From positions 472-64,471 of the forward strand of contig CAYXKT010000002.1 in the NCBI GenBank assembly GCA_964465735.1: a stretch of 64,000 nt of DNA, written 5' to 3'. Source of the stretch: an uncultured bacterium. Its GTDB lineage: Bacteria; Auribacterota; Erginobacteria; Erginobacterales; Erginobacteraceae. The position numbers and the translations under genes are program-made. The notes below the pieces were generated by a model, which saw only the letters and a program-made list of their open reading frames with translations, was not told the origin of the DNA and made no database searches. Shown piece after piece: positions 4,775-63,901 of the stretch (the stretch's first letter is position 1; each line of letters opens with the position of its first letter).

Positions 4775-4894
4775 GGTATCCTCAGCTTGACTTAAAGAAT
4801 GACTGAAAATACAATCAGTCAGTAGTGGCCTGAACCGCTCGTCAGCAAAAGAATATACTATAGCGACTGAACGAAAACCTAAAATCTCACAGGC

Positions 4895-5879: not shown

Positions 5880-5880
5880 A

Positions 5881-6606: not shown

Positions 6607-6647
6607 TAACGGAAAGTTACCGGGAAAAACAAAAACTCCAAGATGAT

Positions 6648-42594: not shown

Positions 42595-42667
42595 GTTCCC
42601 AGTGGAAGATAAATGGTTGGCGGGCCGGTCCGCGGATGGGTCACCGCTTTCCGGCCCCGGAGAGATA

Positions 42668-46057: not shown

Positions 46058-46065
46058 CGGGCCAC

Positions 46066-46821: not shown

Positions 46822-46849
46822 ATTTTTCTCTTCGTTGGAGAGTTCCCCA

Positions 46850-47581
46850 TCACTTCCGGGCCGCCGTGACCAGGTTGGCGGTGAAGATCCCCCTCCCCTG
46901 CCCGCTCTCCACCATCAGGGCGAACCGCCAGAGGCCCTCGATACCCTTCCAGAATATGGTCCGGACGGCCGACTTCAGGCTGTAGCCAAAGACCGGGGGA
47001 GCGGAAAAGGTGGCGGCACCCCGGAACCCGGCCAGCAGCAGCGCGGCTTCCAGGCTGTAACTGGTAAACCCCGACTCGTGGGTCAGATCTCCCCAGCGGT
47101 AGCGGAGCGAAAAGGGACTCTCAAGGTTGACGGTCTGAATCAGCAGCACACCACCGGTGATCAGGGATTGGCGGACCAGGATCAGCAGATCGATGACTTC
47201 CTCCCGGGTAAAGTGCTCGATCAGGTCCCGGGCGACCACCGCCCCGTAAGTCCCGGGGTGGTCGGCCAGGTGATCCCTGACGTCCCCCCGGATTATACCC
47301 TCGATCCCCAGCGAGCGGGCAACGGCCACCTGTTCCCCGCTGATATCGATACCCCTGACGTCGGAATATCCGGCCCGGCGGAGATAGTGGACAAAGCCGC
47401 CGCTTCCGCAGCCGACATCGATCAACGGTGTGGAGAGATCCCGGGGAAGATGCCGCCGGAACCGGTTCTCCCAGACCGGAAACTGCCTCTCGATCGCCTC
47501 CAGGGTGATCTCCGGCCGAGCCGGTCGAGGCCGGATCTCATAGTTCTCGTACAACCTCTTCCTGTACTCTTCTCTCTCCAT
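46850..47581 (-). CDS. Class I SAM-dependent methyltransferase
   Basis: 243 aa. LIDVGCGSGGFVHYL, VRGIDIS, LIEHFTREE. Confidence 0.75.
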   Translation of the reverse strand: MEREEYRKRLYENYEIRPRPARPEITLEAIERQFPVWENRFRRHLPRDLSTPLIDVGCGSGGFVHYLRRAGYSDVRGIDISGEQVAVARSLGIEGIIRGDVRDHLADHPGTYGAVVARDLIEHFTREEVIDLLILVRQSLITGGVLLIQTVNLESPFSLRYRWGDLTHESGFTSYSLEAALLLAGFRGAATFSAPPVFGYSLKSAVRTIFWKGIEGLWRFALMVESGQGRGIFTANLVTAARK

Positions 47582-47715
47582 CTGACCCTCCCGGATTCCG
47601 CCGCCGGTGAAGAACAGCGGGGCGGGGTTTTCCCGCTTTGAATACTATACACGGCCCGGGCCGGCAATCAAGGATAGAGTAGCCAGGCGCCCCCTTACCG
47701 GGCGTCCCTATCCGG

Positions 47716-49194
47716 TCACCGCCCGGGGAAAATCCGGCCCGCCGCCAGGGACAGCAGGACCGTCAAAAGAAGGGCATTGGCGGGGATGGCGAAGTTGAAG
47801 TTAAGCGCACTCTGGAGAAGCAGACCCAGAACCCCGGCGGAACAGCCGGCGACCAGCCCTCGTCCAGCTATCGGCCATCCCCCCGGACGTTTCCGCGGGT
47901 GCCCCGGGTAAGTACTGTCCGGTTTCCAGAACAAAACCGAACCAAAGAATACCAGGAAGAACCCGGTCAGGCCCACCAATCCCCAGGTCCCCATCTCCGC
48001 CGCAACCTGGAGGTAATCGTTCTCGGCGTGGGTAAACGGTTTGCGGCGATCAAAGGACTTGTAATAGGGATATAACTTCTCGAATCCCCCCAGACCGATC
48101 CCCAGGAGCGGGAAATCCCCGTAGATCCGGATGGTATCCCGCCAGATGTCCCGCCGGTACTCCACCTCCTTCCCCTTTCCTCCGATCGTCTCAAAACGAT
48201 GGACCAGGTCGGCGGTCCCGAAGTAGGCCAAGCCCAGGGCGATCAGGACCAGAGAGACAACGAAGATCATCAGGGACTGCTTCCGGTCGATCAGCCGGAA
48301 GCGGCGGGAGATCAAGATCAAATATACAAAGGCGAGAAGACCGGCCAGTATCCCGCTCCGGGAATAGGAGAGAAAGAGGGAAACCGCCATCACCAGGGCC
48401 ATAAAGCCGAGCAGGAGACGCCGGGGTTCGGACCGGACCATCCGGTCCCGAAAAAGCTCCCCGGCCGGCCGGGGCCGACGGCTCAGGAGCAGGCCCAGGG
48501 CGAGGGGGATGACCATTATGATATAGCCGGCAAAATGGTTGCGGTTGACGAAGGGACCGAAGGGATTCCCGAAGCGGATCGGGCGGAGCCAGTAAATCAT
48601 ACCCTGCCAGGAGTACTTCTGGAGAATCCCGATCACCGAGACGGCAAAACCGGTAGCGACAACCGCGGTCAGCAGCCGGGCGGTGAATCCCATCCAGTTC
48701 CCCTCCGCCGGCCGGTAGCCTTTCAGGGTGTAAAAGATCGCTCCGTAGGCCGCCAGCCTGACCAGCTCCCCGGCGGTCCGGGAAGGGTAAAGGGAGAATA
48801 CCGTCCAGGAACCGGAGGTGACCCGCCCGGTCAAAAGCCAGAACCGGGCGGTCCGGGGACTGATCGCGGAGACCAGGGTGACCGGAAGCGGGATCAGCTG
48901 GACCAGCGGGCCGAGGAGAAACAGAATTCCGAACCCGCAGAGCAGATAATCGGCGACCGGGCGGCACGCCGTTGGCGAAAGAGCCCCCGAAAGAGAAGGA
49001 ATTCGGACGAGCAGATGCCGGCGGTAACGTTCGGTCGCGGCAATCAGGAAGCAGCCCGCGGACAGGATAATCCAGGCCCAGGTCTCGACCGCCCCGAAGG
49101 CCAGGGGGGAGAAGACCACCAGGAAGACGGCTCCCCACTCGACAATCCGCTCGCACCGGCGGATCTCCTTCGGAATTGTTAAACGCTCATCCAT
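47716..49194 (-). CDS. O-antigen ligase family (Wzy_C domain) membrane protein
   Basis: Polytopic membrane protein. Large periplasmic loop carrying FLSYSRSGILAGLLAF (the SRSG motif typical of the WaaL/O-antigen-ligase family). I chose the start at the ATG of about 49194 (MDERLT...) to avoid overlap with the upstream GT4. The ORF-track start is 49305. Confidence 0.55.
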   Translation of the reverse strand: MDERLTIPKEIRRCERIVEWGAVFLVVFSPLAFGAVETWAWIILSAGCFLIAATERYRRHLLVRIPSLSGALSPTACRPVADYLLCGFGILFLLGPLVQLIPLPVTLVSAISPRTARFWLLTGRVTSGSWTVFSLYPSRTAGELVRLAAYGAIFYTLKGYRPAEGNWMGFTARLLTAVVATGFAVSVIGILQKYSWQGMIYWLRPIRFGNPFGPFVNRNHFAGYIIMVIPLALGLLLSRRPRPAGELFRDRMVRSEPRRLLLGFMALVMAVSLFLSYSRSGILAGLLAFVYLILISRRFRLIDRKQSLMIFVVSLVLIALGLAYFGTADLVHRFETIGGKGKEVEYRRDIWRDTIRIYGDFPLLGIGLGGFEKLYPYYKSFDRRKPFTHAENDYLQVAAEMGTWGLVGLTGFFLVFFGSVLFWKPDSTYPGHPRKRPGGWPIAGRGLVAGCSAGVLGLLLQSALNFNFAIPANALLLTVLLSLAAGRIFPGR

Positions 49195-49231
49195 ATTCTC
49201 GGGTTTTCGCGCCGCGGAAGGGGGATCGACC

Positions 49232-50359
49232 TCAGGGGAGCCCGAACTCCGCCAGGAGCCCGGCGACTTTTTCCCGGAAGGCTTTTCTCCCGAAGTACCG
49301 GTCAACCCGATCGTGGAGCTCGGCCGGGTCCGGAGCGGTCTCGGTCAATAACCGCCGCAACCCCACCTCGAGTTCTTTCGGACTCTCCGGATCGACCAGG
49401 ATGCCCAGTTCCCCTCCCCGCAGGGCGTCCGCTGCCGCGTCCCGGTTCCCGCCCAGGCACCGCTTTCCGCATCCCATCGCCTCCAGGAAAACAATCCCGA
49501 ACCCTTCCCGGAGACTGGGCATCGCGAAACCGTCGGCCATCCGGTAATGATCGGGCAGTTCTTCGTCGGAAATATACCCGGTTAGGATCACCCTCCCCTC
49601 CAGCCCCAGCTCACGGACTCTCCGTTCGACGTTGGGGCGATCGTCTCCCTCCCCTACGATTAAAAAGCGCAGTCCCGGAAAATCCGGAAGCAGACGGGGC
49701 AGGATCTCAATGACTCGGGAGTATCCCTTGTCCAGCCGGGAGACCACCAGGCGACAGACGCTGATCAACACCCTGTCTTTAGGATCAATCCCATAGCGCT
49801 GCCGCAGCCCGGCCGGGGCCGGTCCGGGCGAGAACCGTTCCCCGTCAAATGTGACCGGGATCACCCGGAACCTTTCTTCCGGGATACCGATCCCGGCCTC
49901 CATCTTTCCCCGGGTAAAATTGCTGATCGGCAGAATCATATCCACCCGGCCCAGCGCCCGGCGGACCCGGCCCCGGGGCAGGTCCCAGACCTCAACCCCG
50001 TAGGCGCTGACCGCCGCCGGGATCGAGAGAGTTCTCTTCAGCCAGGCTGCCGCCGGAGCAAAGTGGGGATGGGCGGAGATGACCAGCGCCGGTCTTTCCC
50101 GCCGGGCGGCCCGCAGCAGCCGGGCCGCGAAGATCGGGGTCCGGACTCGCTCGGGCATATCCCCCGAGGCGGAGATCCCGACGCTCTCCCCGTAGCGCTC
50201 CTCCAGCTCTCCCGGCCGGTCGGACTTGCTCAACAGGCGGATCCGGCCGGGCCCGAGAACGGCCAGGGCCGCCTCCGTCAGCTCCGCCGAGTAATTCTGG
50301 ATACCCCCCACCCGGGACAACAGTTCCGGCACCCAGATATGGAGTACCCCGCTGTTCAT
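49232..50359 (-). CDS. GT4 glycosyltransferase (first gene of the long minus-strand operon)
   Basis: 375 aa. ...MPSLREGFGIVFLEAMGCGKRCL (EX7E). Confidence 0.8.
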   Translation of the reverse strand: MNSGVLHIWVPELLSRVGGIQNYSAELTEAALAVLGPGRIRLLSKSDRPGELEERYGESVGISASGDMPERVRTPIFAARLLRAARRERPALVISAHPHFAPAAAWLKRTLSIPAAVSAYGVEVWDLPRGRVRRALGRVDMILPISNFTRGKMEAGIGIPEERFRVIPVTFDGERFSPGPAPAGLRQRYGIDPKDRVLISVCRLVVSRLDKGYSRVIEILPRLLPDFPGLRFLIVGEGDDRPNVERRVRELGLEGRVILTGYISDEELPDHYRMADGFAMPSLREGFGIVFLEAMGCGKRCLGGNRDAAADALRGGELGILVDPESPKELEVGLRRLLTETAPDPAELHDRVDRYFGRKAFREKVAGLLAEFGLP

Positions 50360-50615: not shown

Positions 50616-52037
50616 TTAGTAGCCCGTGGCTCCGGTGACGATCACCGCGGCCGACTCATTGGGCGCGAGGGTATCGGTACCGACATTCCGGATAATCCAC
50701 TGGTCGGGCGAACGGAAGACCGTCAGGTCGACAACTCCGTCCCCGTCAAAATCTCCCACCACCGGGACGTCGCCGCTATTGCCCCAGACTGCGGTATCAT
50801 AGCCGCCGACCCCGTCGCGCCGGATCCACCAGAACCTGTTGTCGGCCGGCCGGTAGGCGCCAAGGCAAGAATACCCCGAGACATAGGCGCCCGGGACCGG
50901 GATATCGCCGCTCAGACCCCAGGCCCGGCTGCCGGGCACGCCGTTGACGAACCAGCGCCAGGTGCCGTAATCATCCGTGTTGATGACGGCGATGTCGGTC
51001 GTCCCGTCGCCGGTGTAGTCGCCCGGAACCGGGATCACACCGTCATAACCGTAGAGGATTGAGGTAATGTTCTTGACGTACCAGTAACCGTTGGAGGGCC
51101 GCCAGACAGCCAGGTCGGTCGTTCCGTCGCCGTCGTAATCGCCCGGCACCGGAACGTCGCCGGCAATACCCCAGACTTCGCCATCGATGATGGCTCCGCC
51201 GCCCACGCTCTGGGCAAACCATTCTCCGGTACCCCGGTCGAAGTAACCCAGGTCGGCTCTGCCGTCACCGTCATAGTCGCCGGGGGCCGGGACATCGTAC
51301 TCACCACCGCCGAAGGTCTCGGTGCCGATCCCTTCCAGCTGCCAATCGCCGCTGGATTGGTTGTAAAAGGCGGCATCGGTCATCCCGTCTCCACTGTAGT
51401 CGTCACTGGCTTTGACCAGATAAATCGGGGAAGGCGCGGGCGCCGGGGGTGCCGGCGGGGCCACGGTGGTAACATTGGTGATCGCCACATCGTCGATCAC
51501 GACATTGTCGGCATCGACCTTCAAGTACTCGATCTCCACCTGCTGGGAGGAACTGGCGTTGAGGGCCATAGTAATGATTCCGCCGCCGAGGCTGTGAGGC
51601 CCGGGCAGCCAGGAAAGAACGGACCAGTCGGCGCCGTTATATTCCCGGACCTGGATCGCGCTGCTCGGGTTGGCGCCAATGGCCTGGAGGTAGAAGCTCA
51701 GGTCGCTGTCGCCCGGGACGCCGTCCAGAGTGTACTCCTCGGTAATGATCCGGGAGCGGGCGGTCCGGCCCAGCTGGATACTCGGTACACCAGACAACGG
51801 ACCACCATATAACATATCAGCGTCCGAGTTCCGGTTGCAATTGATGAATTCCCAGCCGTCGGGGCGGACCCCGATCTGGAAGTTGTCGAAGCCCTCATTG
51901 ATCTGGGCCGTGGCCGACAGGCTGAGACAGACTGACACCACAATCATTACCGCCAATACCATTATTCCACGCTTCATACTAACCCCCTTCAGGTAGGGTT
52001 GTGTCCCGTTGCGGGGACTTGGTAATATGAAATACAC
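50616..52037 (-). CDS. Secreted protein: N-terminal unassigned domain of about 135 aa plus FG-GAP/VCBS-like repeats, C-terminal ...VTGATGY
   Basis: 473 aa with a signal peptide. N-domain INEGFDNFQIGVRPDGWEFINCNRNSD..., homologous to four copies in the giant protein. Repeats [60 protein letters not shown]. Confidence 0.7.
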   Translation of the reverse strand: MYFILPSPRNGTQPYLKGVSMKRGIMVLAVMIVVSVCLSLSATAQINEGFDNFQIGVRPDGWEFINCNRNSDADMLYGGPLSGVPSIQLGRTARSRIITEEYTLDGVPGDSDLSFYLQAIGANPSSAIQVREYNGADWSVLSWLPGPHSLGGGIITMALNASSSQQVEIEYLKVDADNVVIDDVAITNVTTVAPPAPPAPAPSPIYLVKASDDYSGDGMTDAAFYNQSSGDWQLEGIGTETFGGGEYDVPAPGDYDGDGRADLGYFDRGTGEWFAQSVGGGAIIDGEVWGIAGDVPVPGDYDGDGTTDLAVWRPSNGYWYVKNITSILYGYDGVIPVPGDYTGDGTTDIAVINTDDYGTWRWFVNGVPGSRAWGLSGDIPVPGAYVSGYSCLGAYRPADNRFWWIRRDGVGGYDTAVWGNSGDVPVVGDFDGDGVVDLTVFRSPDQWIIRNVGTDTLAPNESAAVIVTGATGY

Positions 52038-52163
52038 CTAATTCCCGATTATTTACCATTTTCCTCCTGATCGTCCCAGAGGTCAAGAGAAAAATTGATT
52101 TTTTTGAAAATATTTGAACATTTGTAAAACTTTAGCCTTTGTTGCTATCTGCAGCACTTCTGA

Positions 52164-52225
52164 TTGTCATTGCGAAAAATCTCAACCTGAAGATTGCTTC
52201 GTCGCCTTCGGCTCCTCGCAGTGAC
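52164..52225 (+). repeat. Repeat element copy E (diverged)
   Basis: TGTCATTGCGAAAAATCTCAACCTGAAGATTGCTTCGTCGCCTTCGGCTCCTCGCAGTGAC. Same architecture: GTCATTGCGA ... GATTGCTTCGTCG ... CCTCGCAGTGAC. Confidence 0.5.
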
Positions 52226-52257
52226 AATTGCAGACTTATAAAACTGTAGAGACTTTT

Positions 52258-52420
52258 ACCTAAGTTGAGCGATTATTGCGGATGAAATGTGCTAAGATTT
52301 TGCTGGCCGACGGGTTGCGGAAACCGCAGCCATATCCAGGAGATATGGCGAGGATTTTCAATATCCGTTCGGAGGCAAAAGATTGGTGCAGTTCGCCGCA
52401 TAGAATCGCTCAATTTAGGT
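52258..52420. mobile_element. MITE-like 163-bp element with terminal inverted repeats (copy 2 of 2)
   Basis: Same sequence as 18648-18810, differing at 2 positions. Lies between the two tandem paralogous genes. Confidence 0.6.
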
Positions 52421-52526
52421 TTTATAGAGTTGAAGTGTTACTGACATTTTAACCATCGCACATAAAATCCAGCGATGTCGAGAGTCAAACCTGATTTATT
52501 TCCTGGCTTCGGTTTGCGGCTCCGTT

Positions 52527-53900
52527 TTAGTATCCCGGAGCCCCGGTGACGATCACGTCATTGAAGAGATCGGCGGATAAAGTAACTTCGAAGCCGGAGG
52601 TCGGGCCATCCGGTCCGGTCCGCCCCAGCCACCGGTCCGGCGACCGGAATACGGCCGGGTAAACCACCCCGTCCCCGTTAAAGTCGCCCACCACCGGGAC
52701 GTCACCGGTCAGACCCCACAGTGCGGTACCATAGCCGCCGACGCCGTCGCGCCGGATCCACCAAAACCTGTTGTCGGCGGGCCGGTAGGCGCCCAAGTAG
52801 GTATGCCCGTCAGCAAAGTAAACACCCGGGACCGGGATATCGCCGCTCAGACCCCAGGCCCGGCTGCCGGGCACGCCGTTGACGAACCAGCGCCAGGTGC
52901 CGTAATCATCCGTGTTGATGACGGCGATGTCGGTCGTCCCGTCGCCGGTGTAGTCGCCCGGAACCGGGATCACACCGTCATAACCGTAGAGGATTGAGGT
53001 AATGTTCTTGACGTACCAGTAACCGTTGGAGGGCCGCCAGACAGCCAGGTCGGTCGTTCCGTCGCCGTCGTAATCGCCCGGCACCGGAACGTCGCCGGCA
53101 ATACCCCAGACTTCGCCATCGATGATGGAGTGGCTGCCCGGTTTCTGGGCGAACCACTGCCCGGTACCCCGGTCGAAGTAACCCAGGTCGGTCCAGCCGT
53201 TGCCGTTATAGTCGCCGGGCGCCGGGACGTCGTAGTCGCCGCCGCCAAAGGTTATTTTGCCGAACCCGTCAATCCGCCAGTCTCCTTTGGCGGTGTTGTA
53301 AACCGCGATATCGGAAGTCCCGTCTCCAGTGTAGTCGTCACTGGCTTTTACAAGATAAAACGGAGAAGGGGCCGGCGCCGGGGGCGCCGGCGGGGGCGCG
53401 GTGTCCACATTGGTGATCACCACATCGTCGATCACAACGTGACCGTCTCCACCAGCCTTCAAATATTCAATCTCCACCTGCTGGGAGGAGCTGGCGTTGA
53501 GGACCATAGTAATGGTTTCGCCGCTGTTGTTGTGAGGACCTGGCAGCCAGGTCAGCACAGACCAGGCACCACCGACAAACTCGCGGACCTGGATGGCGCT
53601 GATCGGGTTGGGGGTGATCGCCTGGAGCCAAAAACTCAACTGACTGGCACCGGTCAGGGTGAACTTCTCGGTCAAGATCCGGGAGCGAGTGGTCCGGCCC
53701 AGCTGGATACTCGGTACACCAGACAACGGACCACCATATAACATATCAGCGTCCGAGTTCCGGTTACAGTTGAAAAAACACCAGCGCGCCGGCCTGACCC
53801 CGATCTGGAAAGAATCGAATCCTTCATCGATCTGGGCCAGGGCCGGCAACCCCGCACAGAAAACAAGCGCCAGGGCCAATACCAATAAATCACACTTCAT
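52527..53900 (-). CDS. Secreted paralog of 50616..52037 (N-domain plus FG-GAP-like repeats, C-terminal ...VTGAPGY)
   Basis: 457 aa with a signal peptide. Same architecture as the neighbour. Contains a 304-bp block that is 100% identical at the DNA level to the neighbouring paralog. Confidence 0.7.
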   Translation of the reverse strand: MKCDLLVLALALVFCAGLPALAQIDEGFDSFQIGVRPARWCFFNCNRNSDADMLYGGPLSGVPSIQLGRTTRSRILTEKFTLTGASQLSFWLQAITPNPISAIQVREFVGGAWSVLTWLPGPHNNSGETITMVLNASSSQQVEIEYLKAGGDGHVVIDDVVITNVDTAPPPAPPAPAPSPFYLVKASDDYTGDGTSDIAVYNTAKGDWRIDGFGKITFGGGDYDVPAPGDYNGNGWTDLGYFDRGTGQWFAQKPGSHSIIDGEVWGIAGDVPVPGDYDGDGTTDLAVWRPSNGYWYVKNITSILYGYDGVIPVPGDYTGDGTTDIAVINTDDYGTWRWFVNGVPGSRAWGLSGDIPVPGVYFADGHTYLGAYRPADNRFWWIRRDGVGGYGTALWGLTGDVPVVGDFNGDGVVYPAVFRSPDRWLGRTGPDGPTSGFEVTLSADLFNDVIVTGAPGY

Positions 53901-54063
53901 CCTTACCCCCTTGGTGGATGCGACCCGTTGCGAGGACCTGTTAAAAACAACATTAACTCTGTGAAATCCAAATATTCCTGATGATAATCCATTTTCCCCC
54001 TTATCATCCCGACGGTCAAGAGAAAGATTGTTTTTGTTATTTAGTGTCTGAACGAAAACCCCT

Positions 54064-54154
54064 GAAACCAGATCATTACGAGGAGGGACGACGAAGCAAC
54101 CTGTTTACCCTGTGATGAGATGGCTTCTTCGCTCCGTTTTTCGCAATGACAGAC
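54064..54154 (-). repeat. Repeat element copy F (minus orientation)
   Basis: The reverse complement reads TCTGTCATTGCGAAAAACGGAGCGAAGAAGCCATCTCATCACAGGGTAAACAGGTTGCTTCGTCGTCCCTCCTCGTAATGATCTGGTTT. About 160 nt upstream of the 52527..53900 gene start. Confidence 0.6.
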
Positions 54155-54435
54155 GCGATATAATTGGAGGTTTTTTTCAGACACCATTTACTATTTCGAC
54201 CGACCTTCCGTTTCGGATTCAATGTTGACCGGATACCCTTAGGTGTTCCGCGGACCACTCGCCGGCGGCGCCGCTTTTGCTATCTTTGCCGGAATATTTC
54301 TGCTACTTTCTCCCCGGGTGGACAAATTTTGGCCGGGAATTGCTGCTGGACCAGACCCCATCTCGGGGGCAGACAGGAATACCTGGCCCGCCATAAGTTC
54401 CTCAAATAATCCCAAATCAATAATTTTAACGCCGA

Positions 54436-55341
54436 ATGAAAACCACGAGAGAGAAAATTCTTCTTCCCCTGATCGACCTCGTCCCCTGGTCGGTCCGGAA
54501 CCTCTTCTACCGCCTCCCCGGCGTCGCTCCGATCCTCCGGGGTTTACTCAATCGGGCCCTCCCGGCCGAGGGCCGGCTGACCCCGGTCCGGATCTCGGCC
54601 GGCCCCCTGAAAGGATTTCAGCTGGAAATCGATTGCCGGAAGGAAAAATTCTTCTGGCTGGGCACCCACGAACCATCAGTCCAGAAAGCGCTGTGTCGAC
54701 TGGCCCAACCCGGGATGACCGCCTATGACGTCGGAACCTATATCGGTTTCTTTACCCTCCTGCTCTCGCGGGCAGTTGGGGATACGGGCCGAGTTATTGC
54801 CCTGGAACCCAATCCGGATACTTATCGACGTCTGCTTAGCAATCTCCGCCTCAACCACCGGGAGAATGTCCAGGCCCTGCTCCTGGCGGCCGCCGATAAG
54901 TCCGGGCGGGAACTCTTCCAGACGGCGAAACACGACCTGGCCCCGGAGGCCCACCTGGTCGCCTCGGCCACCGTCCCCGAGCCCGACCCGGCCCCGAAAG
55001 TCGAGGTGGAGACCGTCTCCCTCGACGACCTGGTCTTCGACCGGGGTTTCCCCCGACCGGACCTGTTGAAGATCGACGTCGAGGAGAGCGAGGTTCGGGT
55101 GCTGGCCGGGATGGACCGGATACTGAAGGAGTGCCGCCCGGTCATCATCTGCGAGACCCACAGCGAAGAGGCCTCCCGCGAGGGGGCGCGGGCGCTGTGC
55201 GGTCACCACTATTCGTTGCGCGATTTGGAGCGCGATGTACCGATACCGGACGGGATCGACCCGCGGCCGGGAAGACTTTATCTTTTGGCGACGCCCGAAA
55301 ACCCGATGGTAGGTCAGGCATTCCTGCCTGACCTACGATAA
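54436..55341 (+). CDS. FkbM-family methyltransferase
   Basis: 301 aa. AYDVGTYIGFFTLLLS, VIALEPNPDTY, LLKIDVEESEVRVLAGM. Confidence 0.7.
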   Translation: MKTTREKILLPLIDLVPWSVRNLFYRLPGVAPILRGLLNRALPAEGRLTPVRISAGPLKGFQLEIDCRKEKFFWLGTHEPSVQKALCRLAQPGMTAYDVGTYIGFFTLLLSRAVGDTGRVIALEPNPDTYRRLLSNLRLNHRENVQALLLAAADKSGRELFQTAKHDLAPEAHLVASATVPEPDPAPKVEVETVSLDDLVFDRGFPRPDLLKIDVEESEVRVLAGMDRILKECRPVIICETHSEEASREGARALCGHHYSLRDLERDVPIPDGIDPRPGRLYLLATPENPMVGQAFLPDLR

Positions 55342-55352
55342 ACGAGAGGCTT

Positions 55353-56057
55353 ATGAAGATCCACGTCGGCTGCGGAGATTCCCCGATTTCGGGGTGGCGG
55401 AATTTCGACAACTCGATCAGCCTCCGGCTGGCCGGGATCCCTCTCCTGCCCCGGCTCCTCCGCCGGTGCGGAATCCTCAACCCCCGCCAGTACGCCTTTA
55501 TCGAGTTTGCCCGGTTACACCGGATCGAGTACGGCGACGGGGTCAAGGGGCTCCCGGTCCCCGACTGCTCCGCCGAGGCTCTCTACAGCTGCCATATGAT
55601 CGAGCACCTCAGCCGGGCCGACGCCGGACGTTTCCTGGAGGAAGCGAAGAGGGTCTTAATCCCCGGGGGAGTCATCCGGCTGGCGGTCCCCGATCTCCGG
55701 AGACTGGCCGGCCGCTACCTGGAGACCGGCGATGCCGACGGTTTTATCGCCGCCACCTACCTGGGCCGAGAGAACGACGGATCCGTGGCCGGGAGGATGG
55801 CAACGCTGATCGCCGGGCCGCGGCTCCACGGGTGGATGTACGATGAAAGATCGTTGGGCCGACTTTTGCGGGACCACGGATTTTCCGAGGTCGTCGCGGT
55901 CCCGCCGGGCGAGACGGGGATCCGGGAACCAGGAGAGTTGGACCTGAGAGAGAAAGAAGATGAGAGCGTCTATGTTGAGGCGGTAAAACCGGCCGGGGAA
56001 TCGGAAGCCCAAATCGCCTCCAACCGCCCGGTCGGGCCGGTAGAACCGGCTCAATAA
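55353..56057 (+). CDS. SAM-dependent methyltransferase (Methyltransf_11/23-like)
   Basis: 234 aa. [42 protein letters not shown]. Its 3' end overlaps the giant gene convergently by 7 nt. Confidence 0.65.
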
Positions 56058-59000
56058 GCAGTCGCCCCGGTGACGAAGGAGTCGGTGGACTGGGCGGTGA
56101 AATCAACGTAGTAGTACGGCCCGAAGGAAGACAGGATATACCAGCGATTCTCGCCCGGCCGGAAGACGGTCGGATCAGCCAGACCGTCCCCGTCGAAGTC
56201 TCCCACTACCGGGATATCTCCCCGCCCGGGAAGTCCCCAGCGGAACGACTCGGTATAGCTCCCGTCCAGTTTCCGGATAAACCAGTGTCCGGAGGTCGGG
56301 CGATATACCGCCAGCTCGGTGGCCCCGTCACCGGTATAGTCCATCGGCATTGCCAGGTCACCCTCCAGGTACCACCTCCGGGAACCGACCCCCCGGACGA
56401 ACCAATCTCCGGTCGACGGGCGGAGCATCGTGATGTCGGTCGTCCCATCCCCATTGTAATCTCCCGGTACCGGAATATCGCCCTCCCATCCCCAGTGAGC
56501 CACGGTCAGGTTCCGGATCCACCAGCGGTTGGTCGAGGACCTAAAGACGGCCAGTTCGGCGGTCCCATCCCCGGTATAATCCCCTGGGACCGGCAGATCC
56601 CCCCATTCCCCCCACTGCTCTTCGTCCAGTAAAACTCCCCCGGTCAGGCTCAGGACATACCACTTCCCGGAGAAACGGTCGAAGTAGCCGACGTCGGCCG
56701 TCCCGTCCCCGTCGTAGTCGCCGGGCACCGGAATATCACCCTCTCCCCCGCCCCAGACCAGTCCTGAAGTCACCCCCCGGATATCCCATTCCCCGCTGGC
56801 TGGGTCGTAGACCGCGGTATCGCTCGCCCCGTCCCCGTTATAATCGTCCCAATCCACCACCAGGTGGGCCGGGGTCAACCGGACCTCCGGGGTTGGGCTC
56901 GGGGTAGGCGTCGGCGTCGGGGTCCGGTAACCTTCGGGGGTCTGGCTTGGAGCGACGGTCGGTGTCGGACTCAAATACCCGGCCGGAGTCGGGCTTGGCG
57001 AAGCGGTCGGGGAAGGAGTCGCGCTGGGCGCCGGCGTCGGGGTGGTCAGGTATCCGACCTTCTCCAGCCGGGAGATGAAGATATCCTCCGCGCCCCCACC
57101 GAAGACGGACTGGAAAGCGTTCTCGACCGGGAAGTCAGTCGAAACAGTATCCCCGACCAGGTAGAACCTCCGCGAGCCGTCGAGGGCCGCGCCCAAGCTG
57201 GATTCCGTTCCGCTCCCTCCCAGGTAGGTGGAATAAGCCAGCGCATCCCCGACGGGATAGAGACTGGCCGCGAAGGCGTCCCGGTTGCCCCCCCCGTAAA
57301 CGGACTGGTAAGGGCGATAGAGCGGGAAATCGGTCGAGGTGGTCCAGCCGGCCAGGTAAACGTATCCGGAGCCATCGACCGCGATCCCTCGTCCGCGCTC
57401 CTCTCCGCTCCCTCCCAGATAGGTCGAATAGACCAGGGCATCCCCGGCGGCGGCGAGCCGGGCAACGAATACGTCCCCATAACTTGTCCCGCCACTCAAG
57501 ACCGACTGCAGGGCGTCCCGGGTGGGGAAGTCGGCGGAGAGGGTGTTACCGACTATCAGCGCCTCCCCGGTGGCGAGCAGCGCGATATCCTCCGCTCCAT
57601 CCTTACCGGCGCCACCGAGATATGTCGCATAGAGCGGTTCCGAACCGTCGGCAGCGAACCGAACCACGAACGCGTCGGCCTGCCCACCGCCAAAAGCGGC
57701 CTGGAAGGAGGACGCGGTGGGAAAGTCCTCGGACTCGGTCCGCCCGGTCAGGTAAGCCGAACCGGACCCGTCGACCGCGATCGCTTCCGCGTAATCGGCG
57801 GCGGCGCCGCCGAGGAAAGTCGAATAGACCAGGCCGGAGCCGTCACCGGACATCTTGCTGACGAAAATATCCCAGAACGAAGTCCCGGCGTGGGCCGGCT
57901 GCCAGGAATTCAGGGTCGGGAAATCCGCCGACCCGGTGCAGCCGGCCAGGTAGATGTCCCCTTCCCCGTCGACCGCGATACCCCGGACGGAGTCAGTTCC
58001 GGAACCGCCCAGATAGGTGGAGAAGACAAGGGTATCCCCGGAGGAAGATAGCTTGCTGACAAAGGCGTCGTAATCCCCGCCTGCTCGCCCGGCCTGGTAG
58101 GCCGCCGCGGTCGGAAAGTCTTCCGAAGATGTGTAACCGGCCACCAGGGCGTTGCCGTCCCCGTCAAGAGCAATATCCCACCCGACGTCTTCCCCCGAAC
58201 CGCCCAGATAGGTGGAGTAGAGCAAATTCTGCCCGTTTGAGGAGAACCTGGTAACCACTGTATCCCAGGAGCTGGAATAGGCGGGCTGGAGAGCGGAGGC
58301 GGTGGGGAAATCGGCCGAGGTGGTCACCCCGGCCAGGTAAGCCTCTCCCCCGGAGTTAACCGCGATGGCGAAACCCCGATCCCTCCCCTCCTCCCCCAGG
58401 TAGGTCGAGTAGTCGAGGACCAGACGATACATATAGTTATCCGGGGTCGGGGTCGGCGAGGGAGCCGGGGTCGGGGTGTCCGTCGGCGGAGGCGAGACCG
58501 TCGGGGTTGCCGACGGCGTTGGGGTTGCCGACGGCGTCGGGGTAATTGAAGGGGTCGGGGTCATCGAGGCGGTCGGGATTGCCGAAGGCGTCGGGGTCAC
58601 CGTCGAGGTCGGCGTGGCGGATGGCGTCGGCGTTACCGAGGGTGTCGGCACCAGGGAAGGCGTTGGCGTAATGGACGATGTCGGCGCCGGTGACGGTGTC
58701 GGCGTCACCGTGAGCGTCGGGGTTGCCGACGGTGTCGGGGTAATCGAGGGCGTCGGGGTGATCGACGGCGTTGGGGAAATTGATGGCGTCGGTGTAATTG
58801 ACGGTGTCGGTGTCACGCTCGGGGTCGGAGTTGGCGTGACCGAGGGCGACGGCGTCACCGTCGCCGTCGGCGTCACACTCGGGGTCGGCGTTACTGAAGG
58901 CGTCGGAGTAACCGACGGTGTCGGCACCACGGAAGGCGTCGGCGTAATGGATGATGTCGGCGCCGGTGACGGTGTCGGCGTCACCGAAGGAGTCGGGGTC

Positions 59001-62000
59001 ACCGTCGGCGTCACCGTGAGGGTCGGGGTCACCGTCGCCGTCGGGGTAATCGAGGGCGTCGGGGTGATCGACGGCGTCGGGGAAATTGATGGCGTCGGTG
59101 TAATTGACGGTGTCGGCGTGATTGATGGCGTCGGTGAGGGCGTCGGAGTTATCGACGGCGTGGGCGTAATTGAGGGTGTCGGCGGCGCGGTGGGCGTCGG
59201 AGTCACCGAAGGCGTCGGCGTCACCGTCGCCGTCGGCGTCACGCTCGGGGTCGGCGTCAGTGTCGGCGTCGGACTCGGCGTCGGCGTCGGCGTGATCAGG
59301 CACTTGACCAGGACATCGTCCAGGGCCAGGTCGCCGAGGCTCTTCTGATAGGTGAACTGGACCTGGCTGCTCGAGGGGTTGAGAACCAGGCCAGTGAAGA
59401 CCGTCCCGGTCGCGGGGATGGGGAGAAGATCGGTCACGGCGGCCCAGCCGACGGTGGCGGCGTACTCCTCGACCAGGAGACTGCTCAAGGAGTCGGTCCC
59501 CTGCCCCTTGACCCAGAACTGGAGCCACTCCCCGGGCAGGAACTCCGCCGTCCGGATGTAGTAACCGTCGGTGTCGAGCTTGAGCGAGGGCGAGAGATGG
59601 CCGTAGTCCCCGGAGGTGGTATAGACGTCCCCGGCCGCCACCCCGGAGAAGTTCCAGCCCGCCGGGATATCCCAGAGCGGGGCGGTGAACCCGTCAAACC
59701 CCTCGTCCAGCCGGGTGCAGATCGCCGGTGTCGGCGTAGCCGTCGGCTCTGCCGTAGGAGTCGGGGTCGCAGTGGCACTGGGCGCAATCGAGGGAGTCGA
59801 GGTCGCAGTCGGGGCTACGGTCGGTGTCGGAGTTCGCGTCGGGGCCACCGTCGGGGTCGCTGTCGGCGGAACGGTCGGCGGTGGAGTCTTGACCGGGGTA
59901 AGAGTCGGGGCCGGAGATGGCGTGGTCAGGCAGCTGACTAAAACATCATCAAAAGCAAGATCTCCCGCGGACTTATTATAAGTAAAGCGCAATCGTGTAG
60001 TGGAAGTGAGCAGATTAAAAGCTCCCAGGGTAGTCCCGGTTGTCGGGAGCGAACTGATATCGGTAACCGTACTCCAGCTGTCAATCGAGTAGTACTCTTC
60101 TACCAAAAGATGACTGGATGAGTCGGTACCCTGGCCTTTAACCCAGAACTGGAGCCAGTTTCCTTCGGCCAAAGCTGCCGTCTCGATAATATCCCCGGTA
60201 TTGTCCAGTTTGATCGACGGGGAAAGATGTCCAAAACTCCCCACCGCGGTATAGGTATCGGAGTTCAGGTTACAGCCGGTAAAGGTCCAGCCGGACGGCC
60301 GGGTCCCGGTATTAAAACCGTCAAACCCTTCGTCCAGCCGGGTACAGATCTCCGGGGTCGGGGTCGGGGTGACCACCCGGGGAGTGGGCGTAACCGTCGG
60401 GGTCGGGGTCGGGGTGATCACCCGGGGAGTGGGCGTAACCGTCGGGGTCGGAGATGGGAAGTCGGCCGGGAAGTTGAAGCGGGCGGCAAAGGCGTCGTAA
60501 TCTCCGGACCGGGAGGACTGGTAGGCGTTGAGGACCGGGAAGTTGGAGGATTTGGTATAACCGCCGATCGCGATATCGGGGGAATCGTCCGCCAGCGCCC
60601 GGCCCCGGTCGACTCCCGAACCGCCCAGGTAGCTGGAATACTCCAGGGCCGAACCGGCGGGGTTGAACCGGGCCAGATAAGCGTCCCAGTCACCCCCGGA
60701 AGTGGACTGGTAGGCGTTGACCACCGGGAAGTCGGTAGACTTCGTGGCCCCGACCACGGAAACCCGGCCGTCGGTCACTCGCAGGGCGTGGCATTCCTCC
60801 AGGCCGCTCCCCCCGAGATAGGTGGAGTAACCAAGAGTGGAACCGTCGGGGGCCAACCGGGCAACAAAGGTGTCACTGGTGCCGGAGAGGCTCCCCTGAT
60901 AAGCAGCGGAGGTGGGGAAGTTAGCCGAGAAGGTATCTCCCGCCAGGTAAACATTCCCCCCGGAATCAAGGCCGACCCCGCTGGCGGAATCGGCGTCGTT
61001 GCCGCCGAGATAGGTGGAGAAGACCAGGGAAGTCCCCCCGGAGGAAAACCGGGCAACAAAGGCGTCATAGCCACCGGCCATCGCCGGCTGGTAGGCAGAC
61101 ACAGTGGGAAAATCTCCAGAGTAAGTCAGACCGGCCAGATAGATTTCACCGCTGGAAACCGTGACCGCCAACCCCTGGTCTTCATCCGACCCCCCAAAAT
61201 AGGTGGAATAAAGCAGGGATTGTCCGTCCGCGGCAAAACGGGCAACAAAAGCGTCGTAATCGCCCCCGGGCGTCCCTCCGTGCGCGGACTGATAGGCACC
61301 GACGACCGGGAAATCGCCGGAATTGGTGTACCCGGCCAGATAGGGGGTGTCGTTTTCGACGAAGATGCCGTAGCCACGGTCATTCTCATTCCCCCCCAGA
61401 TAGGTGGAGTAGAGAAGATCGGTGCCCCCGGAAGAGAACTTGGCGAGAAAGGCATCGCTGGAACCGGACCGAGACGACTGGTAGGCGTTGACAGCAGGGA
61501 AATTATAGGAAAATGTGGTCCCGATTATGTAGGCCTGGCCGGAGGAGTCGACCGCCAGAGCATTGACATAATCGGATGAAGATCCTCCCAGGTAGGTGGA
61601 GTAACTCAGGCTCTGCCCATCGGAGGAGAACTTGGCCAGGAAAACATCGTAATTACCGGCGTTGCCGGATTGATAGGCGTTGGCGGACGGAAAATTGCTC
61701 GACCGGGTATAGCCGGTCAGGTAGATCGAACCATCAACGATCTCAATCCCCCGGGTATAGTCCTTCCCGGTTCCGCCGAGATAAGTGGAATACTCCAGGG
61801 CCAGGTTAACCGGGGTCGGGGTCGGTCCGGACGGGGTCAGGGTGGGGACCGGGGTCAAGGTAGCAGTCGGCGGCGGGGTCGGGGTGGCGGTCGGCGGCGG
61901 GGTCAGGGGGAGCGATGGAGTCGGGGTCGGGGTTTTGTAGTCCCCCGGGGTCACCGTCGCCGTCGGCGGCACGCTGGAGGACGGCGACGGTGTCGGAGAT

Positions 62001-63901
62001 TTGTAATCTACCGGGGTCGGCGTGGTCAGGGAAGGGTTGCCCCGGATGATGATGTCGTCGAGAGCGATGTTGCCCTTCTCTTTATTCAAAGTAAACCGGA
62101 TCCGGTCGGTGGGGTTGTAGAGATTGATCGGACCCACCGTAACCCCCTGCTTGGTATCGGGAAGATAGGTAAACTCGCCCAGCGGATACCACTGGTCGTT
62201 ATAGTGGTCCTCAACCAGCAGGGAAGTGGTGGTATCGGTGCCGGCCCCCCGCATCCAGAACTGGAGCGAGGTGGCGTCATAAAGGACCTCGGTGGTGATC
62301 TGGGCCCCGTTGGTATCGAGCTTGATCGAGGGAGGCGACTGACCGCAGTAATCGGGGTTGGAATAAGTATCGCTGTTAAGGTTGCAATAAAGGAATGTCC
62401 AGCCGGCTGGTCGGACGCCCGCGGCAAATCCGGTAAAATCTTCCTCGACCACAACCTCGTGCGCGGTGACGTGAAAGGTCTTGGTCACGGGTTTGTGAGT
62501 AATCCCAGGATAGTAGAGGTCGTCGTATTTGATCGGCGGGACCGCCGAGAGGGGGGCAAAGATATGGTCGTCGAAGACGTGGCCGGCGGTAAAGGTCTGG
62601 AACGAGGTATAAGTCTGGCCGACATTGGTGGTGATGGTCCGGTTATCGAGGAGAACGTTGGGCATTATCCAGTCGTAGGGGTAGCTGCGGGGGGTAGTCG
62701 AATTGGTGTTGTCGTTCCCCTCCCGGTCCATCGGGATGTAGTTATTGTAGTTGAGGAAGGTCGAGAAGACGGCCAGGCAGGGTTCACTGGCCGGGGAGCG
62801 GGAAAAGCAGTTCAAATCACCGGCCAGGACCGCGTAATGGTTCTGCAGATCAAACTCAGTCTGCATATAATCCTTGAGCTGGTAAGCCTGGTCCTCCCGG
62901 ATCAGCCGGTCCGAGGTGGTATTGCCGGCCTTGAGATGAACGGAGACGATCTGGAGGTCCCGGTCGCCGGGGATATCGACCACCGCCCAGGCAAAATTCC
63001 TCCCCAGCGTCTCGTGGCCGACATCCTCCCAGGTCCCGGCGGTCAGGATCGACCATCGGCTGATGATCCCGTTGGCGGCGCCGGCGGACTCGATATAGTA
63101 ATCGAAATCACTCCCGAAGGCGGTATCCACCCATTCCCGGACCCCGGAGTAGGTGGACTGGACGCTGAACTCCTGGACGCTGGTAATATCCGGTCCCAGG
63201 CCCTGGAAGATCCGGGCCGCCGGATCTCCGTAACGGTACTTGAAGGCCATAATGTTAGTGGTACAGACGGTCAGGGACTCATAGTGGGAGATCGGGGTCG
63301 GCGGGGGCGTCGGGGACTTGTAGCCAACCGGGGTCGGAGTGGTGACACCGGCGGTCGGGGTCGGAACCGGGGTTGAGGTCGGGATCGGGGTCGGGGTCTT
63401 GAAAAGGGAGGTAATCAGGACATCATCAATACCCAGATTGCCGCTCCGTTTGGCGTAAGTAAATTTCAGCTGGCTGGTCGAGGGATTGAGGGCGAGGTCG
63501 CCGATCGTCGTCCCGGAGGTGGGGAGATAACTGACCTGAGTCAGGGTGTGCCAGGTACTGAAATACTCTTCGACCAGGAGGCTGCTGGTGATGTCCGTCC
63601 CCTGGCCCTTGATCCAGAATCGGAGCCAGTCCGGGTCGGAGAAGCTGGAGGTGGTGACGGCGTCGCCGGTGGCGTCAAGCTTGATCGAGGGGGAGGCGGC
63701 GCCGTAATCTCCGGCCATAATATAGGTATCGGCATCCTGGTTGCAACCCGTGAACGTCCAGCCGGCCGGTCGGGTCCCGGTATCGAAACCGTCAAACCCC
63801 TCCTCAATCAGGGCACCCCGGGAAGAAGAGATAACCGCGAAAGAAGCCAACAAGGCAACGGAGGCAAGAAAGACTCGAAAAAGACGCTTGGAGATCTTCA
63901 T
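56051..63901 (-). CDS. Giant secreted multidomain surface protein (2616 aa): 4x unassigned N-domain, EEP-like domain, 2x SBBP-type propeller repeat blocks, Pro/Thr/Ser linkers, C-terminal FG-GAP-like repeats ending ...VTGATAY
   Basis: Signal peptide [29 protein letters not shown]-like region at about 62500-63290 ([13 protein letters not shown]...VSVHLKAG...GDLNCF...[10 protein letters not shown]). SBBP-like repeats ([24 protein letters not shown]) at about 60100-61800 and 56730-58410. PT linkers, the largest at 58437-59330. FG-GAP-like repeats at 56054-56620. Confidence 0.85.
58437..59330. repeat. Low-complexity tandem-repeat DNA encoding a (T/S)PTP(S/T)(V/I/A) linker of about 300 aa
   Basis: 6-, 9- and 15-bp periodic GTCGGGGT / GACGGCGTCGG repeats. 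On the minus strand they read [17 protein letters not shown].... On the plus strand they produce the spurious [13 protein letters not shown]. Confidence 0.8.
60364..60447. repeat. 42-bp perfect tandem duplication within a PT linker of the giant gene
   Basis: GGGGTGA(C/T)CACCCGGGGAGTGGGCGTAACCGTCGGGGTCGG x2. Encodes [11 protein letters not shown](I/V)T twice. Confidence 0.7.

Follow-up and report, generated by a model that had tools for sequence, protein, structure and literature searches.

A divergent jelly-roll domain, probably related to MAM and cleaved-adhesin modules, in six copies across three secreted proteins of an uncultured member of the Auribacterota

A domain of about 135 aa, named here the X domain, was found in exactly six copies in the window analysed, a stretch of 64,000 nt from an uncultured Auribacterota bacterium (contig CAYXKT010000002.1, positions 472-64,471; GCA_964465735.1). 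Four copies (c1 to c4) are carried by a secreted protein of 2616 aa, and two tandem paralogs (A and B) have one copy each, behind the signal peptide. The X domain is probably a divergent, so far unmodelled branch of the MAM/gingipain cleaved-adhesin/choice-of-anchor-J kind, to which it is joined by weak sequence links. The low GC3 of one copy, c3, is inherited within the Erginobacter lineage. To our knowledge, Auribacterota is a phylum known from MAGs alone.

The features of the three genes are given in Table 1. The giant protein consists, in order, of a signal peptide, X(c1), an EEP-like domain, X(c2), a PT linker, an SBBP propeller, X(c3), a PT linker, X(c4), a long PT linker, an SBBP propeller, a PT linker and an FG-GAP region. 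The NCBIfam model Lepto_SBBP_lipo covers aa 723-1084. The interval between c1 and c2 (aa 201-485) was left without a match by the Pfam scan of the giant protein. It was weakly matched to the Bacillus cereus sphingomyelinase C (phmmer, E 0.007), and GDLN and 'THKPV' motifs were visible by eye in its translation; it is tentatively assigned as EEP-like. Comparison of the C-termini showed that the FG-GAP/VCBS-like region is common to the giant protein, which ends in ...VTGATAY, and to both paralogs. The true start of paralog A is probably the Met at 51977. The adjoining genes (Wzx-like, GT4, Wzy_C and FkbM) form a polysaccharide-synthesis cluster.

Table 1. Position of the X domain copies and associated features in the window
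Feature	Coordinates	Strand	Evidence
Giant secreted protein, 2616 aa	56051..63901	-	ORF and translation; Pfam SBBP 3.4e-51, FG-GAP
X copy c1, aa 31-164, immediately behind the signal peptide	63410..63811	-	External HMM E 3e-52; GC3 0.77
Region between c1 and c2 resembling the endonuclease/exonuclease/phosphatase (EEP) fold, aa 201-485	62447..63301	-	Tentative
X copy c2, aa 484-620	62042..62452	-	External HMM E 1.7e-44; GC3 0.73
SBBP beta-propeller repeat region 1, aa ~702-1145	60467..61798	-	Pfam SBBP; 'YSTYLGG' repeats in translation
50-nt direct repeat, 88% identity to 59688-59737	60315..60364	.	Repeat search
X copy c3, aa 1188-1323, compositionally distinct	59933..60340	-	External HMM E 1.5e-53; GC 51.5%, GC3 56.6%
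Maximum-likelihood low-GC3 segment within c3, aa 1222-1321, GC3 0.50	59939..60238	-	Scan statistic LLR 15.1
X copy c4, aa 1397-1533	59303..59713	-	External HMM E 1.4e-39; GC3 0.91
Long Pro/Thr/Ser linker, C-terminal side of c4; period 18 nt, 44.5 copies	58499..59293	-	Tandem Repeats Finder and translation
SBBP beta-propeller repeat region 2, aa ~1836-2290	57032..58396	-	Pfam SBBP, best stretch 1959-1995; repeats in translation
C-terminal FG-GAP/VCBS-like repeat region, aa ~2375-2616	56054..56779	-	Pfam FG-GAP, FG-GAP_3
Paralog B, 457 aa: signal peptide, X, Pro/Ala linker, FG-GAP region	52527..53900	-	ORF, Pfam
Paralog B X domain	53412..53834	-	External HMM E 3.8e-27
Paralog A, 473-aa ORF: signal peptide, X, Pro/Ala linker, FG-GAP region	50616..52037	-	ORF, Pfam
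Paralog A X domain	51477..51905	-	External HMM E 1.3e-25

An external HMM was built from foreign sequences alone and then run on the window copies. All six were matched (E 1e-25 to 1e-53), in the three secreted proteins and at the places where a preliminary description of this DNA had located them. DNA identity among the six copies was 45-62% (c3 versus c4, 61%); they are old paralogs, with no recent duplication. The X domains of paralogs A and B were 77% identical in aa and 81% in nt, and these two genes are a younger tandem pair. Counterparts of c1 were present at the equal position in the 'Ca. Erginobacter occultus' orthologue (L003, 85%) and in the L009 orthologue (65%). One clade united the c1 copies of Erginobacter (window, L003 and L001), and another united c2 with its L003 and L009 copies (bootstrap 1.0 for both). 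Two motifs are near-invariant, E-x-F...P-x-G-W on the N-terminal side and D-D-[VI] on the C-terminal side, and residues E5, D132 and D133 were invariant or nearly so in the family alignments. Cysteine was absent from the invariant and near-invariant alignment columns; it recurs only at the domain borders (C-T-R-L-D-E-G-F ... D-D-V-L-V-x-C) and in 'GCN'.

The X family was collected by an exhaustive HMMER search, which gave 1076 representatives (50%-identity clusters) with E<=1e-3 and, with E<=1e-10, 623. Most were 400-2900 aa long. Two to seven X copies were carried by 45 of the 156 family proteins examined. The partners of the domain were FG-GAP, Ig-like, fn3, LTD and peptidase C39-like domains and T9SS C-terminal domains, and most of its hosts were large surface proteins with several domains, from PVC and Bacteroidota. 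A related-loci search, made with a narrower alignment, found the family in MAGs of Auribacterota, other PVC, Verrucomicrobiota and Flavobacteriaceae. In a cluster look-up, the relatives bore no database names other than 'hypothetical protein' and 'PKD repeat protein'. The word-indexed protein search alone gave 10 matches, mostly contig-end fragments; the family became visible by the exhaustive search.

The AF2 model of the X domain (pLDDT 89.9, pTM 0.86) is a jelly-roll of ten beta strands, in agreement with the lectin-like beta-sandwich that had been predicted. Its two sheets are superimposable on the beta-sandwich jelly-roll of members of the GBD clan (galactose-binding-domain-like). In Foldseek, Kgp K1, K3 and K2 took the first five places (E 2e-5 to 7e-5), and the MAM domain of promeprin beta came next (E 1e-4). 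The other solved structures matched were reelin sub-repeats, CBM4, 6, 16, 22, 29, 36 and 61, and a porphyran-binding CBM. By sequence profile, meprin beta MAM was reached at E 0.07 with the six copies and at E 3.4e-4 with 40 sequences, the latter value being for the whole sequence and weak (about 0.05) per domain. A profile of divergent members had Kgp K1 as its top PDB match, also weakly (E 0.011). The choice_anch_J model NF038128 was matched by 6 of 40 diverse family members (best E 1.1e-6). The best score, that of member P0061 over model positions 2-149 of 162, was 28.2 bits for a cut-off of 30, and none of the six window copies matched this NCBIfam model at E<=1; choice-of-anchor J is therefore not a name that PGAP would give them. 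On the six window copies and 40 diverse members, PF07675 gave no match at E<=1 and the Pfam model PF00629 gave none. No curated model of Pfam-A or NCBIfam reached its threshold on any window copy. The remaining Pfam glimmers in family members were all of the GBD clan (F5_F8_type_C(_2) and CBM_11). Pfam and NCBIfam scans run on single sequences and member by member gave sub-threshold matches to the domain, such as PCSK9_C3 and WCX, which were rejected as spurious.

Curated HMMs miss the X domain, probably because its subfamily is divergent and so far unmodelled. The earlier statement that the domain belongs to no known family thus holds for the curated models and fails at the superfamily level, where MAM, cleaved-adhesin and CBM fold relatives were found; a match to MAM or CBM had been named beforehand as evidence against novelty, and at that level these relatives essentially amount to one. 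The window copies without Pfam or NCBIfam match, and relatives named 'hypothetical protein', could be taken as signs of a genuinely new fold or family without described relatives, but this is contradicted by the structural matches, the meprin MAM profile match and the near-cut-off NF038128 match, and we regard it as very improbable. Current understanding is not overturned by these findings.

Among the named relatives, the cleaved-adhesin domain (K1-K3 of P. gingivalis Kgp/RgpA/HagA; PF07675; PDB 4itc, 3km5, 3m1h) is about 170 aa long, whereas X is about 135 aa, and the proteolytic processing sites and catalytic domain of gingipains have no counterpart here. The PVC/Auribacterota hosts of X have FG-GAP C-terminal regions, unlike cleaved-adhesin proteins, which have T9SS C-terminal domains; the Bacteroidota members of the X family do carry the latter (Por_Secre_tail). 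Two C-terminal variants of X proteins were seen, the Bacteroidota-type T9SS tail and the FG-GAP type with conserved endings of PVC/Auribacterota, and this pairing with differing sorting or anchor regions across phyla is a likeness to choice-of-anchor J. Combinatorial modularity and copy-number change have been described for the cleaved-adhesin domains of Kgp, RgpA and HagA (PMC5266723), and cleaved adhesins have a structural Ca2+ site, on the convex face, in common with CBMs and reelin sub-repeats (PMC4882317). Jelly-roll CBMs (CBM4, 6, 16, 22, 29, 36 and 61) and reelin sub-repeats were 8-17% identical to X, with no significant sequence-profile link. The MAM domain (PF00629; meprin, neuropilin, RPTP mu/kappa) occurs chiefly in eukaryotes, and its four cysteines follow a conserved pattern. 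This pattern is missing from the X alignments, in which the cysteines are at the two domain boundaries. A new family model would be justified beside cleaved-adhesin, MAM and choice-of-anchor J, and a module left blank by curated databases is now given a name and a fold. It is present in more than 1000 protein clusters, among them many giant surface proteins from little-known lineages of PVC and Bacteroidota.

By analogy, the X domain would most likely be a non-catalytic binding module, for adhesion or substrate targeting, on secreted and surface proteins. The two conserved motifs probably form the structural core plus a putative metal site common to these folds. The EEP-like region, the SBBP/FG-GAP propellers, the PT linkers and the polysaccharide cluster suggest glycans, detritus or cell-surface polymers as the ligand class, and the X proteins are likely an attachment or substrate-capture apparatus of Auribacterota. 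More narrowly, X could be a carbohydrate-binding module that directs its proteins to a polysaccharide, either detrital glycans or exopolysaccharide of the cell itself, and not a protein-binding adhesin. Many of the strong structural matches are CBMs (the seven families and the porphyran-binding module cited above), the genes adjoin the Wzx/Wzy/GT4/FkbM cluster, and one family member has a weak Pfam CBM_11 match (E 0.34). However, cleaved adhesin and MAM, which score highest among the relatives, serve mainly in protein binding or oligomerisation. CBMs usually accompany a carbohydrate-active enzyme, and no glycoside hydrolase or other CAZy catalytic domain was fused to X in the 17 architectures scanned, so that this restriction to carbohydrates is possible but doubtful.

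Within its gene, copy c3 has the lowest GC and GC3 (GC 51.5%; GC3 57% versus 76% for the gene; permutation p<0.001), which confirms the lower GC first noticed for this copy. The LLR of its low-GC3 segment was reached in 0 of 1000 permutations, and the dip is thus outside the normal intragenic variance to which it might have been ascribed. The coding GC3 over the window has a mean of 0.745 and an sd of 0.076 (100-codon windows). No embedded RNA was found in the AT-rich patch (Rfam, E<=1), and a promoter or terminator was unsupported as its cause (0 promoter-like sites; 1 terminator-like site for 1.2 expected). The c3 of the 'Ca. Erginobacter occultus' orthologue is 93% identical in aa to that of the window, with a GC3 of 0.61, and has the same trough (40-codon bin 1282-1321, 0.40 versus 0.42). 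Being common to this orthologue, the dip is neither an assembly artefact nor recent. The gene is repetitive and related MAG contigs break within it (L003 ends and L023 starts in a c4 unit), as in a chimera produced by a repeat-induced mis-join of another organism's reads, but in an independently assembled Ace Lake MAG c3 occupies the same place, has this GC3 trough too and is 92-97% identical in nt over its length, which makes a chimera barely credible.

As judged from sequence comparison, c3 is a separate subtype, closest to tandem-array copies of another protein. It is 75-76% identical in aa to the array copies of L004, in the Auribacterota MAG MFD02416.bin.2.262, versus about 62% to the same-position copy of the orthologue in this MAG; the best matches of c1, c2 and c4 there are in the orthologue (65-71%). 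The grouping of c3 with L004 had a bootstrap of 69%. A mosaic c3, with a native N-terminal and a foreign C-terminal part, was rejected: both parts are nearest L004-type copies (86% and 74%). A 'c4-type' copy at the c3 position of the L009 orthologue was also dropped (bootstrap <=8%; the three L009 copies are homogenised). The 50-nt direct repeat spans the boundary between linker and domain, 'TPTP(E/A)[12 protein letters not shown]', at both c3 and c4.

Two origins of the dip were weighed. Copy c3 could be a cassette received from a lower-GC donor by horizontal transfer or recombination, its composition still being donor-like. The significance of the dip, the closeness of c3 to the L004 array copies and the presence of the junction repeat and a 45-nt duplication on its flanks are in favour of this. 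However, the 'Ca. E. occultus' orthologue, whose nucleotide divergence is 12%, has the dip as well, and any transfer of c3 therefore predates that split. The close c3 relatives found are all GC3-rich (L004 0.89-0.94, L006 0.69, L025 0.72-0.85, L026 0.85), so that a low-GC donor is unsupported and absent from the data. L026 was ruled out as donor by its GC3, and L025 by that of its c3-like domain, although its contig GC is 52.6%. In addition, the homogenisation of the three L009 copies (99.5% bootstrap) obscures the ancestral state at the c3 position. We consider a low-GC donor unlikely. GC-biased gene conversion has been proposed for bacteria in the literature, and the contrast could have arisen in situ if tandem copies with frequent gene conversion were driven GC3-rich and the non-recombining singleton c3 drifted AT-ward. 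Array copies are always the GC3-richest (seven of L004, 0.89-0.94; c4 units of L003, 0.83-0.87; three of L009, 0.85-0.89; c4 of the window, 0.91), singletons are lower (c1 0.77, c2 0.73, c3 0.57), and L009 and L004 copies evolve in concert. Yet c3 is below the window-wide coding GC3, and a missing GC-raising force alone leaves a GC3 lower than that of ordinary single-copy genes unexplained; the correlation is based on a handful of loci. An origin in situ would thus not be likely either. The conserved trough beside GC3-rich tandem copies is a small, clean case in which to study the part of repeat dynamics in local composition.

The cassette-like acquisition or exchange of c3 put forward in the preliminary description is retained in so far as c3 is a separate subtype near the array copies of another protein; against it, the dip is inherited, the donor was not found and the clearest turnover is that of c4. 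A wider scheme would make X a functionally distinct, phylum-spanning family that in Auribacterota tethers a putative extracellular EEP-type phosphodiesterase/nuclease and propellers to one particular polymer (extracellular DNA/detritus, or a methylated exopolysaccharide made by the cell itself), with subtypes such as c3 swapped as cassettes between surface-protein genes or lineages, varying specificity and leaving the compositional scar of c3. We hold this scheme to be improbable.

Module turnover is real, and it concerns mainly c4, not c3. X modules and their PT linker are amplified and lost in tandem between close relatives. The L003 orthologue, 88% identical in nt to the giant gene over 5.1 kb, has at least four tandem units of c4 plus PT linker, its contig ending in a c4 unit, and the L004 array contains 7-8 near-identical X copies.

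The X domain, about 135 aa long, was located in six copies by motif search and MAFFT alignment. Four (c1 to c4) belong to a giant secreted protein and one to each of two paralogs (A and B). The other copies were 35–57% identical to c1, and 19 columns were invariant across the six (e.g. E-x-F, P-x-x-W and a C-terminal D-D). An HMM built from 34 foreign sequences only recovered every copy (E 1.5e-53 to 1.3e-25) and, across all frames of the window, gave no further X match, which bears out the preliminary description of a six-copy domain shared by three secreted proteins. DNA identity among the copies was 45–62%; they are therefore old paralogs, except for the younger A/B gene pair (81%). In many copies (c3, c4 and many foreign sequences of the family alignment A4), the first strand is directly preceded by a Cys (I-C-T-R-L-D-E-G-F), and a second Cys directly follows the last (D-D-V-L-V-x-C). 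This pair suggests a disulfide that would clamp the N- and C-terminal strands.

Positions of the X copies and associated features in the window
Feature	Position	Strand	Remark
X copy c1	63410-63811	minus	giant protein; motif search and MAFFT alignment
X copy c2	62042-62452	minus	giant protein; motif search and MAFFT alignment
X copy c3	59933-60340	minus	giant protein; motif search and MAFFT alignment
X copy c4	59303-59713	minus	giant protein; motif search and MAFFT alignment
X copy A	51477-51905	minus	paralog A; motif search and MAFFT alignment
X copy B	53412-53834	minus	paralog B; motif search and MAFFT alignment
Boundary Cys codons	59716-59718 / 59300-59305 (c4), 60341-60346 / 59930-59935 (c3)		
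Giant protein ORF, 2616 aa	56051-63901	minus	
Paralog, 457 aa	52527-53900	minus	
Paralog A, 473-aa ORF	50616-52037	minus	
Pro/Thr-rich (PT) linker after c4, ~300 aa	58499-59293	minus	18-nt period x 44.5
Polysaccharide-synthesis cluster	41179-50359 and 54436-56057	minus and plus, respectively	lies beside and in between the genes of the three secreted proteins

Searches of Pfam-A and NCBIfam gave zero matches on the six copies, permissive E-values included. The AlphaFold2 model of c3, built from a 14-sequence alignment, was all-beta (pLDDT 89.9, pTM 0.86). Foldseek ranked the cleaved-adhesin domains K1, K3 and K2 in positions 1–5 (E 2e-5 to 7e-5), with promeprin beta next. The sequence evidence agreed independently, both lines leading to the MAM and cleaved-adhesin domains. 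The sole PDB match of the six-copy profile was the meprin beta MAM domain (E 0.07, and 3.4e-4 with a 40-sequence family profile), and Kgp K1 was the best match of a profile made from the most divergent members (E 0.011). The NCBIfam model NF038128 ('choice-of-anchor J') was matched by 6 of 40 diverse members (best E 1.1e-6); one family member scored 28.2 bits over positions 2–149 of the model's 162 (cut-off 30 bits). The remaining faint Pfam signals came from galactose-binding-domain-like families only. We conclude that X is a divergent, unmodelled subfamily within the MAM/cleaved-adhesin/choice-of-anchor-J branch of the jelly-roll superfamily. The statement that X could not be matched to a known family thus holds for curated models, none of which names the copies, and fails at the superfamily level, where the profiles reached a MAM domain. 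The subfamily is new and sizeable, yet unremarkable within a known class of binding module.

An exhaustive HMMER search returned 1076 representatives (50% identity) at E ≤ 1e-3, 623 at ≤ 1e-10 and 140 at ≤ 1e-30. Family proteins were mostly of 400–2900 aa, and 2–7 X copies were present in 45 of the 156 examined. X was frequently the first domain behind the signal peptide; its partners were FG-GAP (propeller-type) repeats, Ig-like, fn3, LTD, C39-like peptidase and T9SS C-terminal sorting domains. The named genomes with close copies belonged to Auribacterota (Erginobacter, Euphemobacter), other 'PVC group' MAGs, Verrucomicrobiota and Flavobacteriaceae, and relatives are named 'hypothetical' in the databases. 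Members from PVC MAGs typically carry a C-terminal FG-GAP-type region with a conserved end. One domain joined to C-terminal regions that differ by phylum is the behaviour for which 'choice-of-anchor' domains are named.

MAM domains serve in protein–protein adhesion or oligomerisation, and CBMs bind glycans. Because the relatives of the fold are non-catalytic binding modules, X may be read as a binding or targeting module, which would present or anchor the catalytic and propeller parts of the secreted proteins on a polymer. Cleaved adhesins, the haemagglutinin-adhesin domains of gingipains and HagA, keep protein complexes assembled at the cell surface (PMC5266723). Reelin sub-repeats, CBMs and cleaved adhesins all have a convex-face Ca2+ site (PMC4882317); the invariant N-terminal Glu and the last-strand Asp-Asp of X are candidate residues of a predicted site of this kind. 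The adjoining polysaccharide cluster and many CBM structural matches favour a glycan as the putative ligand. That X is specifically a carbohydrate-binding module is rather unlikely.

The GC content of c3 was 51.5%, and its GC at third codon positions (GC3) 56.6%, vs 62.8% and 75.5% for the whole gene; c4, directly downstream in the protein, had a GC3 of 91%. The gene-wide sliding-window minimum fell on c3, with 0.4% (GC) and 1.1% (GC3) of windows equally low. A scan statistic delimited aa 1222–1321 (59939–60238; GC3 0.50) with an LLR of 15.1 (next segment 6.8), attained in 0 of 1000 permutations. The composition of c3 is therefore clearly lower in GC than its gene, as had been claimed, and exceeds normal intragenic variance. 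Over 100-codon windows of the window's long ORFs, mean GC3 was 0.745 (sd 0.076); the few as low as c3 appear, from ORF coordinates, to fall where stop-to-stop ORFs extend 5' into non-coding sequence. The AT-rich patch in c3 is not accounted for by an RNA family, a promoter or an unusual terminator. In L003, the Candidatus Erginobacter occultus orthologue of the giant gene, the counterpart of c3 lies at the same position (93% aa identity) with a GC3 of 0.61 vs 0.78 for the gene; in the 40-codon bin 1282–1321 the values were 0.42 (L003) and 0.40 (window). Nucleotide identity of c3 to L003 was 92–97%, slightly over the gene average and equalled by other segments. Because this independently assembled orthologue shows the same trough, the dip is neither an artefact nor recent: the anomaly is genuine and inherited.

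The dip had been taken to suggest cassette-like acquisition or exchange of c3. This reading is partly supported; import of c3 from a low-GC donor is not demonstrated. By neighbour joining, c1, c2 and c4 each paired with the same-position L003 copy. The c2 copy also joined that of L009, the orthologue in MAG MFD02416.bin.2.262 (bootstrap 1.0), and the best matches of c1 and c4 within this MAG were likewise the same-position L009 copies, in groupings without bootstrap support. The c3 copy grouped instead with 7–8 near-identical tandem copies in L004, a different X-domain protein of that MAG (bootstrap 69%, moderate). Their aa identity to c3 (75–76%) exceeds both the 65–71% of the orthologous c1/c2/c4 copies in the same two genomes and the ~62% between c3 and the same-position L009 copy. 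However, the three post-propeller copies of L009 are homogenised (99.5% bootstrap) and the ancestral state at the c3 position is therefore unreadable; a 'c4-type' copy there in L009 was dropped for this homogenisation. No mosaic boundary was visible within c3. All its close relatives found were GC3-rich (L004, 0.89–0.94; three other loci, L006, L025 and L026, 0.69, 0.72–0.85 and 0.85), so a low-GC donor is unsupported. What stands of the cassette proposal is the affinity of c3 to copies of another protein; the low-GC donor does not, and the dip is inherited. Cassette exchange across the X family in general is plausible.

GC-biased gene conversion on recombining repeats would fit the GC3 contrast between array and singleton copies, GC3 being systematically highest in the former and lowest in the latter. 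Over all loci, this contrast suggests that repeat recombination is linked to local GC, but conversion alone does not account for c3 falling below ordinary genes. The L004 array (4000–10032) has a period of ~211 aa.

Module turnover is real elsewhere than at c3 and mainly concerns c4. The giant gene was 88% identical in nucleotides over 5.1 kb to JAVCCZ010000132.1, a contig of the Ca. E. occultus MAG; its C-terminal part and one paralog matched a second contig of this MAG, which was described from Ace Lake, Antarctica (Candidatus Auribacterota, PVC group; PMC9324843). These genome-scan matches place the window in a close relative of Ca. E. occultus. At least four tandem units of c4 plus a PT linker of ~190–250 aa were present in L003:2425–9933, the contig stopping inside a fifth, vs a single unit in the window (58400–59713). 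The window c4 was 94% identical to the last complete L003 unit and 88% to the others. Either the copy number truly differs, or repeats were collapsed in one of the assemblies; in parallel, the cleaved-adhesin domains of kgp, rgpA and hagA vary in copy number and subtype (PMC5266723). A 50-nt direct repeat (88% identical) where linker and domain meet in c3 and c4 (59688–59737, 60315–60364) and a 45-nt tandem duplication (98% identical) immediately 5' of c3 in the gene sense (60353–60451) are plausible substrates for turnover events.

All three proteins carried a Sec-type signal peptide by sequence reading. In the giant protein it was followed by c1, a region resembling the endonuclease/exonuclease/phosphatase (EEP) fold, c2, a PT linker, an SBBP propeller and c3, then a PT linker, c4, the long PT linker, a second SBBP propeller, a PT linker and FG-GAP repeats. 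The paralogs have a minimal layout (signal peptide, X, Pro/Ala linker, FG-GAP). In paralog A the ORF begins at a GTG, and 20 codons (51977–52037) precede a Met with which a typical signal peptide begins (MKRGIMVLAV...); this Met, at 51977, is probably the true start. Between c1 and c2, aa 201–485 (62447–63301, minus strand) had no Pfam match and weakly matched Bacillus cereus sphingomyelinase C (EEP fold, E 0.007). With its GDLN- and 'THKPV'-type motifs, the region may act as a secreted phosphodiesterase or nuclease. DNA-degrading microcompartments are predicted in Ca. E. occultus (PMC9324843).

The three window proteins end in ...VTGA[T/P][A/G]Y (56051–56080, 50616–50645, 52527–52556). X proteins of other PVC MAGs (L004–L020) have a different conserved end, ...GLWA.RG.TR.YFG..GD.P[VA][TA]R. 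Such tails might close a propeller as its last strand or act as a sorting signal not yet recognised. Two metagenome homologues (P0004 and P0005; L001:10001–10615) have unrelated tails, ...STRLNSSHTDISRMPSSA and ...VSYTHLTLPTN, which lie close to or at the end of a contig and seem to be artefacts of assembly or of adapters, not genuine C-termini.

The polysaccharide-synthesis cluster encodes a Wzx-like flippase, four GT1/GT4 glycosyltransferases, a Wzy_C polymerase/ligase, and FkbM-type and other methyltransferases. Its main part lies downstream of the paralogs (minus strand), at lower window coordinates; two further methyltransferase genes separate the giant gene from the paralogs. Ahead of each paralog, the intergenic DNA (51800–52600, 53800–54400) had a GC content of 43–50% vs 59% for the window and is presumably a promoter region.
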